Positions 58,001 through 61,000 of a stretch of DNA of 64,000 bases are shown piece by piece. Numbering within the stretch: position 1 is the stretch's first letter; each line of letters starts with the position of its first letter. The position numbers are program-made. This stretch comes from Escherichia coli (GTDB taxonomy: Bacteria; Pseudomonadota; Gammaproteobacteria; Enterobacterales; Enterobacteriaceae), in NCBI RefSeq assembly GCF_030013595.1, contig NZ_CP122768.1; one strand, 5' to 3'.

Positions 58001-61000
58001 TTTTGCATCTGCAGTCGACATTTCATTGCTGGTTGAAATATCACCTATTTTTTCATACTGCGATTCAACTTTTTCAAATTCCGCTTTGGTCATCAATTCA
58101 GCGGCATAGACATTGGTAACGGCTAACGCTAACGCACCGACTAACATTTTAGAGATTATTTTCATATTACGGCTCCAGAGTTGTTATCACACTATCACCC
58201 ACCCACATTATTGGGTTGATTAATAATTAGTTCAGTCAGGGCATAAACGCCAGTAACCGGAAATAAGACACTTTGTGATCTCTCTCGCACCCGATTATTT
58301 TTGGTAGAAATATGATGAAGTTACTTCACTTATTTATGGATGAAATCACTATGGATCCTTTGCACGCCGTTTACCTGACCGTAGGACTGTTCGTGATTAC
58401 TTTTTTTAATCCGGGAGCCAATCTCTTTGTGGTAGTACAAACCAGCCTGGCTTCCGGTCGACGCGCAGGGGTGCTGACCGGACTGGGCGTGGCGCTGGGC
58501 GATGCATTTTATTCCGGGTTGGGTTTGTTTGGTCTTGCAACGCTAATTACGCAGTGTGAGGAGATTTTTTCGCTTATCAGAATCGTCGGCGGCGCTTATC
58601 TCTTATGGTTTGCGTGGTGCAGCATGCGCCGCCAGTCAACACCGCAAATGAGCACACTACAACAACCGATTAACGCCCCCTGGTATGTCTTTTTTCGCCG
58701 CGGATTAATTACCGATCTCTCTAACCCGCAAACCGTTTTATTTTTTATCAGTATTTTCTCAGTAACATTAAATGCCGAAACACCAACATGGGCACGTTTA
58801 ATGGCCTGGGCGGGGATTGTGCTCGCATCAATTATCTGGCGAGTCTTTCTTAGTCAGGCGTTTTCTTTGCCCGCAATGCGTCGTGCTTATGGGCGTATGC
58901 AACGCGTTGCCAGTCGGGTTATTGGTGCAATTATTGGTGTATTCGCGCTACGCCTGATTTACGAAGGGGTGACGCAGCGGTGAGCAGATAATTTACTCTC
59001 TACGTAATCAACCTGATTTGCCGAATCCCGACCATCGGCGATGATAGCCCCCGTAATGCGTGGTCCTTATTTCCGATAAGTTTACTTGAGTCTTTAGCTT
59101 CCCATTTCAGCCCACTCTCCCCTGTGTGGGCTTTTTTCATTGCTCTGACCCGTCCTGAATAGCCAAACAATGGCAATGTTTCACTTTGCAGGGATGATAA
59201 TAAGGGGATCTGATTCAGAAGAGTTATGAAAAGTTGGACCGCCATCGAGGCCTCGAACCCCGTACCATACAACAATCCTGGTTGTCGTCTGCTCTTCCTG
59301 ATGAGCTAATGGCGGTTTTTGATATGAGCCTTACAGCATATTTTCTGTCAGGCTTGAGTGCGATGCGTAAGATACAGAAAAGACCCCACACAAACATGAT
59401 GGAATTATGATTTTTTTCATATGAATGTCAACCCACACATTCACAAAACATCTGCATGAGATCATTTTTTATACACCGTATAACTGCGAAACCACTGCTG
59501 ATGCTTTTTTAAGCGAAGCGTCGCCGATCACAACAAAATATCGGCGAAAAAGGCGGTGGAATGCCATTTGGCATACGGATATACAGATGAAATGATTACC
59601 TGCTTTGCGATTCACTCTCTGCTGGAATAACAACTCGCAGGTGGAACCCTTTCTGAACTAAAGAGTGTAGCGGATTTTAACGTGCTTATTTACAGGATAA
59701 TATCTGTCACCTAATTCCTGCACTCTATTAGATATCCATTGATTTAATCGCGCATCATCTCTGTATGTTTTTACGTCCAGAACAGAGAGCAATAACATCA
59801 CCAGTGATTCAGGAAAAACAGGGTAGATATTTTTTAAGTGTAATAATAATCCATGCGCAAGCGCCTGCTTAATGGGCGCGTCGGTCTCCGGGATAGACGA
59901 CATTTCGCGAAGCCATTTTTCCACATGCATACACTCTTTCCCTTTAGGGAAAAGTCTCAGCAAAGGCATATGGTGTTCAAGAAGAATACATTTGCAATCT
60001 GTTCGCACTGAATCGATAAACTGCACTAATTTCTTAAGCCCGGTAAAGCGTCCAGCCTGCACGTTTGCTTTAATATCAAGAAACGCATCGTCCTGGTCAT
60101 ATACCCAAACTGTCCCTTTTTGATTTTCAAGTATGCGAAAAACAAACTTAACCGGGTGATCAGGGTAATCCATCCAGTCATAAAATCCAGGGAAATCATT
60201 AAACTGCACATTTATGGTGAGTGCGTTATCGTCTGACCACTCACAGTCTCGTACGGCAGCCATGAGATGAATGAGTTTGTCGTCATCGACTAAATCATCA
60301 CGACAATCATAAGGATAATCATAATATTGTTTAATCAAAACCTTGAATATATCGACACAGGAGACCAGGGAGCTTTTGATATCCTCTGGTAACTGATTGT
60401 TTTTTACTGTATTAAGTATGCTTTGTTGCGTATATGGCATCAAATTATTGTGCGGAGCTTTTAATGATATCATCGCGATCTCTCTTAAATAAAAATAAAC
60501 GTCGCAGATAATAAAGCCCTGATTAAACCAGGCACTATCAGAAATCGCTCATAACTAACGTGTGAAGTATTGTGTACTGGAGGGAGTTAATTTAACAATT
60601 TGAATTTACGTTATAGGTTTTACTGCTACTTTGATATTATTTCGCTCTCCTTAACTAAAAAGTTAAGTGGAGAGCGAAGTTAATATGTTAAACCACAGGG
60701 TATTTATTAATTTTTTCAGTCTGTTAGTGTGCGATTATCGATAACAAAACGATATTTCACATCTCCTCGCAGCATTCGCTCATAGGCTTCATTAATTTGA
60801 TCGGCCCGAATCATCTCTATATCAGCCACGATGCCATGTTCGGCGCAAAAATCGAGCATCTCCTGAGTTTCTGGAATGCCGCCAATCATAGAACCGGCTA
60901 TCGCACGGCGTTTCATGATCAGGTTGAAAACTTCCGGCGATTTATGCGGTGTCGCAGGCGCACCAACCAGCGTCATGGTGCCATCACGCTTCAGCAAGGT

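Follow-up and report, generated by a model that had tools for sequence, protein, structure and literature searches.

Known tRNA-like RNAs and the yahM locus

Between yahL and yahM, in a stretch of 64,000 nucleotides of an Escherichia coli chromosome (hereafter the window), lies an 81-nt tRNA-like element of phage ancestry. It is identical in sequence between Escherichia species, and we read it as a probable small RNA gene rather than as the beginning of yahM. RNAs that are built like a tRNA and do not decode are a known kind, which includes the tRNA-like domain of tmRNA, the tRNA-like module of YrlA and the tRNA-Other of Bacillus cereus. These have kept the tRNA-shaped acceptor stem, T arm and elbow and lost decoding, as we propose for the yahM element; they have no sequence relationship to it, and the comparison is by shape only.

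Closer relatives are found among phage tRNAs. Phage 933W and related Stx/lambdoid prophages carry the cluster ileZ-argN-argO upstream of stx. Its tRNA-Arg(UCG) gene, argN, is homologous to the element, with the same acceptor stem (CCGCCAU/AUGGCGG), the same U73-CCA end and the same D and T arms. However, argN has a canonical CUUCGAA anticodon loop, where the element has a 27-nt non-canonical anticodon/variable region, and argN belongs to a cluster, whereas the chromosomal element is solitary and has its own promoter. The closest relatives are the genes of the phiP27 type, labelled 'tRNA-OTHER' or pseudo-tRNA, which occur in prophages and phage-plasmids between tRNA-Ile(CAU) and tRNA-Arg(UCU). 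They are 85% identical to the element, have the same 81-nt length, and share with it an ACGAC/GUUGU stem closed by an oversized loop. The loop sequence differs, AACCAGGAUU in the phage copies versus ACGAUAACAGG in the chromosome, and so does the setting: phage copies lie 2-10 nt from the flanking tRNAs in a Q-dependent late operon, while the one in the chromosome stands alone, with yahL/yahK on one side and yahN on the other. In the literature that could be searched, no paper was found on ileZ, argN or argO, or on any tRNA-like element at yahM.

The E. coli K-12 pseudo-tRNAs ptwF, pawZ and pauD, found at prophage ends, are also tRNA-derived and phage-linked; they look unexpressed, and they are partial 3' duplicates generated by integration at a host tRNA. 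The yahM element differs from them in being full length, in resembling a phage-encoded rather than a host tRNA, in having a promoter and in having no adjacent prophage genes. An origin as such an integration-site (att) duplicate was rejected, as both acceptor strands are present and no phage DNA flanks the element. Finally, some phage tRNAs have been proposed or shown to counter tRNA-targeting defences (PMC10264068, PMC11464382, PMC11555353). In these, changes of the anticodon loop are the functional point, which provides a framework for the variation, located mainly in the loop, of the phage family described below. These tRNAs come from lytic phages, T5 among them, and are able to decode, in contrast to the prophage family, whose loops of 3-11 nt make it almost certainly non-decoding.

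An 81-nt tRNA-like element at the edge of the yahL-yahM spacer

Gene order in this part of the window is prpR(+), yahO(-), yahN(+), yahM(-), yahL(-), yahK(-). A sequence-only reading had flagged 59276-59657 as an ORF-free (open reading frame-free) spacer between yahL and yahM. The spacer is real and most of its description was confirmed: no ORF of at least 60 aa lies inside the interval (the longest overlapping ones have 54-58 aa), its GC content is 42% against 52% for the window, it contains three short inverted repeats and no intrinsic-terminator-like site, and it is longer than the yahN-yahM (16 bp), yahO-yahN (146 bp) and yahL-yahK (242 bp) gaps. Its start has to be moved. The interval extends from the yahL stop (59658) to the longest possible yahM ORF, which begins with a TTG at 59275; with the RefSeq start, an ATG at 59245, the spacer covers 59246-59657, or 412 bp. 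It is composite, with a small proximal part that is probably a transcription unit, running on the minus strand from 59453 down to 59235, and a distal filler (59454-59644). The features of the proximal unit, and the annotated gene that it runs into, are the following.

59235-59315, minus strand: tRNA-like element, 81 nt, recognised by ARAGORN, by a cloverleaf minimum-free-energy fold, by phage homology, by a phage-only covariance model and by conservation.
59316-59397, minus strand: predicted 5' leader of about 82 nt, from the presumed transcription start to the tRNA-like element, with two predicted hairpins; 80-88% conserved between species.
59404-59431, minus strand: sigma-70 promoter yahMp, TTGACA-16-CATAAT, matching the consensus at 11 of 12 positions; also present in E. 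albertii, Escherichia sp. E1V33 and the divergent 'E. coli' lineage L007, where it is conserved.
59422-59443, no strand assigned: inverted repeat TGAATGT-N8-ACATTCA, with the -35 hexamer between or within its arms; it is shared by four Escherichia lineages.
59000-59245, minus strand: annotated yahM ORF, 81 aa, starting inside the tRNA-like element; its coding sequence is not conserved.

The element is the only tRNA-like gene that ARAGORN reports in the window; the program names it 'tRNA-Ser GGA' and puts its anticodon at position 38, which is abnormal. By conversion from yahM at 345,404-345,649 of K-12 U00096.3, the element would lie there at about 345,334-345,414 and the predicted transcription start at about 345,252. 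We rejected the serine label: tRNA-Ser is a class II tRNA, with a long variable arm, and the variable region here has only 6 nt (AUGGUA). The cloverleaf is the minimum-free-energy fold of the element alone (-30.8 kcal/mol, z-score -2.85), and it also forms when the predicted primary transcript is folded. Direct reading gives a 7-bp acceptor stem, CCGCCAU/AUGGCGG, followed by U8; a 4-bp D stem with A14, G18, G19 and A21; and a T arm, CGGGG-UUCGAGG-CCUCG, followed by the discriminator U73 and an encoded CCA. The body is thus that of a canonical tRNA, with acceptor, D and T stems of 7, 4 and 5 bp, U8, A14, G18-G19, T54-T55-C56, A58 and a 3' CCA.

The anticodon arm is not canonical. The region between the D and T arms has 27 nt instead of the usual 22 or so, and folds either as a 7-bp stem with a 6-nt loop or as a 5-bp stem with a 10-nt loop. 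A 7-nt loop with U33 and a purine at position 37 is not found: the loop is CCAGGA (6 nt, on the 7-bp stem), or else CAGGAUU, with A33 and U37, reached after 4 extra nucleotides. The product is predicted to be a non-decoding tRNA-like RNA.

The sequence-only reading could assign no structure to the spacer and saw no obvious promoter; both statements are contradicted by the cloverleaf and by the near-consensus promoter at 59431-59404 on the minus strand. Its guess that an unannotated small RNA might be present fared better, since a phage-derived tRNA-like candidate with a promoter lies in the spacer. The position was not the expected one, the candidate being at the yahM-proximal edge and running into the yahM start codon, so that its 5' 40 nt fall within the flagged interval and the remainder outside. 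The yahM ATG (59245-59243) is nucleotides 71-73 of the element, the start of the 3' acceptor strand, and the only Shine-Dalgarno-like sequence for yahM, GAGG, is nucleotides 62-65, in the T loop. No annotation of the chromosomal element by PGAP was seen in any record examined. Searches of the spacer against Rfam 15 small RNA families returned only sub-threshold chance matches (E 0.2-3.6). Those to PrrF, GlmZ, the Kv1.4 IRES and 'toxic sRNA' were discarded as far under the gathering scores and due to a promoter-like A/T run or to the yahN terminator.

Perfect conservation is confined to the element

The exact 81 nt, together with five upstream A residues, are present in E. albertii, in E1V33 and in L007, the last being about 88% identical overall. 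In a multi-species alignment, homology extends from about 59453, at the promoter, to the CCA and ends there. Within it, the element shows no difference at any of its 81 positions relative to each of the three lineages, versus 10-16 differences over the 82 nt of the leader (80-88% identity) and 80-96% identity for the promoter block.

Variation within the species was scored in ten diverse E. coli genomes plus L007. One of the 81 positions of the element is segregating; in the two flanks taken together, 35 of 177 positions are (Fisher p = 1e-5). The single variant, at 59248 in the sampled O157:H7 genome, turns a G.U pair of the T stem into G-C. On a larger scale, 5426 complete E. coli genomes were searched by megablast, and 5172 of them had the locus; the tRNA-like element is present in 5168. 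Among 5170 complete-genome records, 4821 had an identical 81-nt element, 2963 an identical 81-nt leader, and 349 identical 81 nt downstream. These comparisons suggest that the 81-nt element is under selection, changing at a rate far below that of its flanks. This chromosomal region, with the leader and yahL, also occurs in nine or ten records that are labelled as plasmids, either because the replicon was mis-assigned, perhaps, or because a plasmid may have captured a piece of chromosome.

Promoter, leader and transcription

Sigma-70 hexamers at a spacing within 16-18 bp are present upstream of the element, and their activity, as well as their repression by IHF, come from the literature. The Reg-Seq preprint calls yahM 'completely uncharacterized', confirms with a reporter assay a transcription start that high-throughput data had shown, and identifies IHF as a repressor of the promoter, both subunits being recovered by mass spectrometry. 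From the position of the -10 hexamer, the start is predicted to lie near 59397. No match to the IHF consensus WATCAANNNNTTR with at most 2 mismatches was found in 59300-59530 that would place the published IHF site. The inverted repeat at 59422-59443 does not match the IHF consensus; it looks like a putative operator. The two leader hairpins were not retained as a structure, since a single compensatory change is too weak. Elsewhere, yahM RNA was reported by infection transcriptomics to be increased in Shiga toxin-producing E. coli adhering to epithelial cells, and RNA-seq data list yahM-yahN as a convergent excludon. The sequence-only reading had stated that its guess would fall if the spacer were neither transcribed nor conserved. 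The opposite was found on both counts: the reporter study has an active yahM promoter, and the element is 100% conserved between species.

A genomic SELEX (systematic evolution of ligands by exponential enrichment) study (PMC5493296) has strong binding within yahL in three of its tables for minor-sigma holoenzymes, with intensities of 5.6, 27.1 and 17.8. This peak was assigned there to the downstream gene yahM; it converts from K-12 position 343660 to about 60120 in the window, outside the flagged spacer.

The element belongs to a prophage tRNA-like family

The megablast search also gave a copy of the element (85.7% identity, E 1e-15) on a phage-plasmid, where it is annotated 'tRNA-OTHER'. It sits between tRNA-Ile(CAU) and tRNA-Arg(UCU), beside a sialate O-acetylesterase pseudogene, an arrangement which we take to be that of an Stx-type phage late region. 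Against a phage database, only the tRNA-like part of the spacer gave matches, to phiP27 (84.9%, E 3e-17), mEp460 (80.6%), TL-2011c and Yersinia YeP1-3. In 933W, the same position of the cluster is occupied by the canonical argN.

The family was gathered by pattern scans of IMG/VR and of GTDB genomes. Of the 29 distinct variants obtained, 27 come from phages or prophages and the other 2 from chromosomes. An alignment of 25 of them (23 phage/prophage, 2 chromosomal) shows 99% pairing in the acceptor, D and T stems and one compensatory change, of U7:A66 into C7:G66; the mode of collection inflates these figures. The anticodon stem, ACGAC/GUUGU-like, bears loops of 3 to 11 nt, and many members are reported by ARAGORN as 'tRNA-???' with two-base anticodons. 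A covariance model was built from the 23 phage/prophage copies only, leaving out the anticodon stem, for which the MAFFT alignment was inconsistent. This model matches 59315-59235 over its full length, with 84.2 bits and an E-value of 2.6e-19, and has no other match in the window. The element therefore fits the profile of the prophage 'tRNA-OTHER' genes found at the argN position. It does not lie in a tRNA cluster downstream of an antiterminator Q: it is solitary in the window, with yahN and yahL/yahK as neighbours. From these sequence comparisons, the element is apparently a descendant of the middle member of lambdoid-prophage tRNA clusters, at the argN position of ileZ-argN-argO. We also asked whether the leader could be a decayed ileZ and the trailer a decayed argO; local alignments were no better than with shuffled sequence, and weak similarity to the phage spacer was limited to some 8-24 nt upstream of the element.

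Several prophage members have features of their own. The IMG/VR loci L035-L072, L010 and L014 (for example L035:3315-3389) form a large prophage tRNA-like family with intact acceptor, D and T arms and anticodon loops of 3-11 nt. Such genes are wedged 1-3 nt from tRNA-Met/Ile(CAU) and from a tRNA-Gly, tRNA-Arg or tRNA-Thr. Several of their loops resemble that of tRNA-Lys with U33A (CAUUUAA) or with one base deleted (CAUUAA). At L023:9224-9300 there is an apparent chimeric tRNA, whose 5' half is identical to the family and whose 3' half has an anticodon arm, T arm and acceptor strand like those of tRNA-Thr(UGU). Its 3' acceptor strand does not pair with the 5' strand, and ARAGORN gives no call.

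A probable structural RNA gene rather than a protein gene

Perfect conservation bounded by the ends of the element, a conserved promoter upstream, decay of the yahM ORF (see below) and unconserved flanks: such a combination is what structural RNA genes typically show, and does not resemble that of a protein gene, an untranslated region (UTR) or junk. Because of it, we favour on balance, and by a modest degree of confidence, the reading that the locus produces a transcribed, tRNA-like, non-decoding RNA of phage ancestry, and that yahM is an annotation artefact. Transcription would start at the near-consensus sigma-70 promoter, reported to be repressed by IHF, and proceed through the leader of about 82 nt into the 81-nt tRNA-shaped RNA. 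The transcript would then be processed like a tRNA precursor, by RNase P at the 5' end and by RNase E and exonucleases at the CCA. The product would be a stable non-decoding RNA whose action lies in its tRNA shape; it might, for instance, compete for enzymes that bind tRNAs or serve as a decoy for them, or do so with toxins that target tRNAs. The apparent yahM start would be accounted for in the same way: as its Shine-Dalgarno sequence and AUG are the T loop and the 3' acceptor strand, they would be sequestered in helices or severed by processing.

Several observations weigh against such a gene. The locus is missing from about 5% of complete E. coli genomes, and in E. coli DETEC-S792 (L073:3501-4315) an IS1 is inserted within the element, at about nucleotide 62 in the T loop, the only truncated match noticed among the 5170 records; the element is therefore dispensable. 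No tRNA match was obtained with the Rfam model RF00005 at E <= 10, in searches with 901 nt and with 121 nt, while positive controls scored well (933W argN 54.8 bits, flanking phage tRNAs 65-73 bits). This failure is explained by the non-canonical anticodon arm. Moreover, tRNAscan-based annotation calls the phage relatives pseudo or 'OTHER', and, given both this and the Rfam result, the family could consist of degenerate tRNAs. The apparent conservation of its arms is inflated by a collection based on sequence patterns. Lastly, the start site, the processing and the stability of the RNA are all deduced, and the decoy mechanism is speculation.

A wider version of the proposal is put forward tentatively, as we hold it to be somewhat less probable than its negation. 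It states that a tRNA-shaped RNA of phage origin has been domesticated in Escherichia, where strong purifying selection maintains it and IHF controls its own promoter; that this RNA does not decode and acts through the tRNA body, for instance as a decoy or competitor for tRNA-targeting toxins or for tRNA-processing or -modifying enzymes; that yahM is a mis-annotation; and that the many prophage 'tRNA-OTHER' genes with anticodon loops of 3-11 nt are a functional class, not pseudogenes. If true, a tRNA-like gene invariant across species overlaps a 'completely uncharacterized' y-ome gene of the K-12 reference annotation, which changes how yahM should be studied, and the promoter and expression data at hand would concern an RNA that was presumed to encode a protein. 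A core-genome locus would also be linked to a widespread, ignored class of prophage genes in which the tRNA body is conserved and the anticodon loop free to vary, of relevance to current work on phage tRNAs and tRNA-targeting defence. What would be new is one more tRNA-derived or tRNA-like RNA of phage origin, added to a kind of RNA that is already known.

The yahM reading frame and other explanations

If yahM were a conserved protein-coding gene, an intact ORF, purifying selection and a protein family would be expected; it has none of the three. Only 5 of the 10 sampled E. coli genomes have the intact 81-aa ORF. The other five are disrupted, by Q12* in O157:H7 and by frameshifts in four genomes, and PGAP marks them as pseudogenes. 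A stop occurs at codon 12 in L007, and there is no ORF in E. albertii or E1V33. Within E. coli, single-nucleotide polymorphisms in yahM are 11 non-synonymous versus 2 synonymous. Neither YahM nor YahL gave a significant match to Pfam, PHROGs or NCBIfam.

These data bear first on the alternative that survives best, although we judge it unlikely: that the element is an inert prophage-tRNA fossil, whose only present role is to provide a genuine yahM mRNA with a structured 5' UTR and a site of translation initiation, the Shine-Dalgarno sequence and AUG being sequestered in the T arm and acceptor stem. The T-arm and acceptor helices do contain the GAGG and the ATG, yahM is annotated in most RefSeq genomes, and the pseudo or OTHER labels of the phage relatives agree with a fossil. 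However, the ORF supposed to be regulated is the unconserved one just described, and a UTR switch has no need for invariance over all 81 nt, loops included.

The 3' part of yahM raises a second alternative. Past the yahN stop lies a block (59035-59139, plus strand) with the yahN 3' UTR and terminator, and the part of yahM that encodes the C-terminal half of its ORF is antisense to this block.

59110-59137, plus strand: terminator-like hairpin of yahN followed by T6, antisense inside the yahM ORF; this terminator is part of a sub-threshold Rfam match.

The block is conserved in E. albertii, in contrast to the surrounding sequence, and could be a small RNA derived from the yahN 3' UTR; variation in the length of the terminator T-run is the source of some of the yahM frameshifts. 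The element might then be a cis-acting RNase P/RNase E cleavage signal for an RNA further downstream, whose ends or stability it would determine; this RNA would be antisense to the yahN 3' UTR and terminator, within the yahM-yahN excludon. The listing of this convergent pair in RNA-seq data and the conserved block inside the yahM ORF speak for it, yet the sequence from the CCA to the yahN terminator is not conserved. In addition, recognition by RNase P requires only the acceptor/T-arm half of a tRNA, and the invariant D and anticodon arms are for this reason left unexplained. We give this explanation a still lower probability than the fossil.

Improbable, to our mind, is an ordinary intergenic region ahead of a genuine small-protein gene, yahM, with a normal promoter and an inconsequential resemblance to a tRNA; this is the standard annotation and a promoter is indeed present, but YahM has no family match, its ORF decays, and conservation has its peak precisely over the tRNA-like element, away from the ORF. 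As for a leaderless 57-aa ORF reading through the element (59397-59224, minus strand), it is most improbable as the conserved product and was rejected: its ATG is 7 nt past the -10 hexamer, it is kept in E1V33 as 59 aa and PGAP sometimes annotates a hypothetical protein there, but a stop at codon 4 interrupts it in both E. albertii and L007, and coding would lead to synonymous changes, of which the tRNA-like part has none.

The distal spacer and the yahL cassette

Beyond the promoter block, the rest of the spacer and the neighbouring gene are made of two segments.

59454-59644, no strand assigned: distal spacer, E. coli-specific and polymorphic (nucleotide diversity pi 0.062), with an 8-bp hairpin at 59521-59547; no function detected.
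59645-60479, minus strand: yahL cassette, 835 bp, with a presence/absence polymorphism, clean junctions and no flanking repeats.

The distal spacer is the most polymorphic segment (pi 0.062 versus about 0.02 in its flanks); it has no counterpart in E. albertii or E1V33, and a search against the phage database gave no match. Its hairpin was rejected as a terminator, there being no U-run on either strand. This distal part is an E. coli-specific, fast-evolving filler beside the yahL cassette.

The sequence-only reading had offered a deletion or insertion scar as its other guess. Indels are real at this locus, as cross-species homology ends at about 59453 and yahL is an 835-bp cassette, but their form and position are other than expected. 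The cassette is present in 4075 of the 5426 complete E. coli genomes and missing in Nissle 1917, A21 and R8, where the junction reads CAGGTGG|CTCTCTT. E. albertii and E1V33 also lack yahL. In E1V33, yahK is directly upstream of the promoter block. In E. albertii (L006:1269-1491), both yahK and yahL are missing and the promoter block is directly followed by yahJ; all that is left of yahK are short pieces of its 3' end and of its terminator hairpin, which points to a deletion of yahK in E. albertii rather than to an insertion in E. coli. The locus is an indel hotspot. YahL has been described as highly conserved in E. coli/Shigella in a paper on quantitative PCR markers (PMC11057252); about a quarter of the complete genomes lack this proposed E. 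coli marker.

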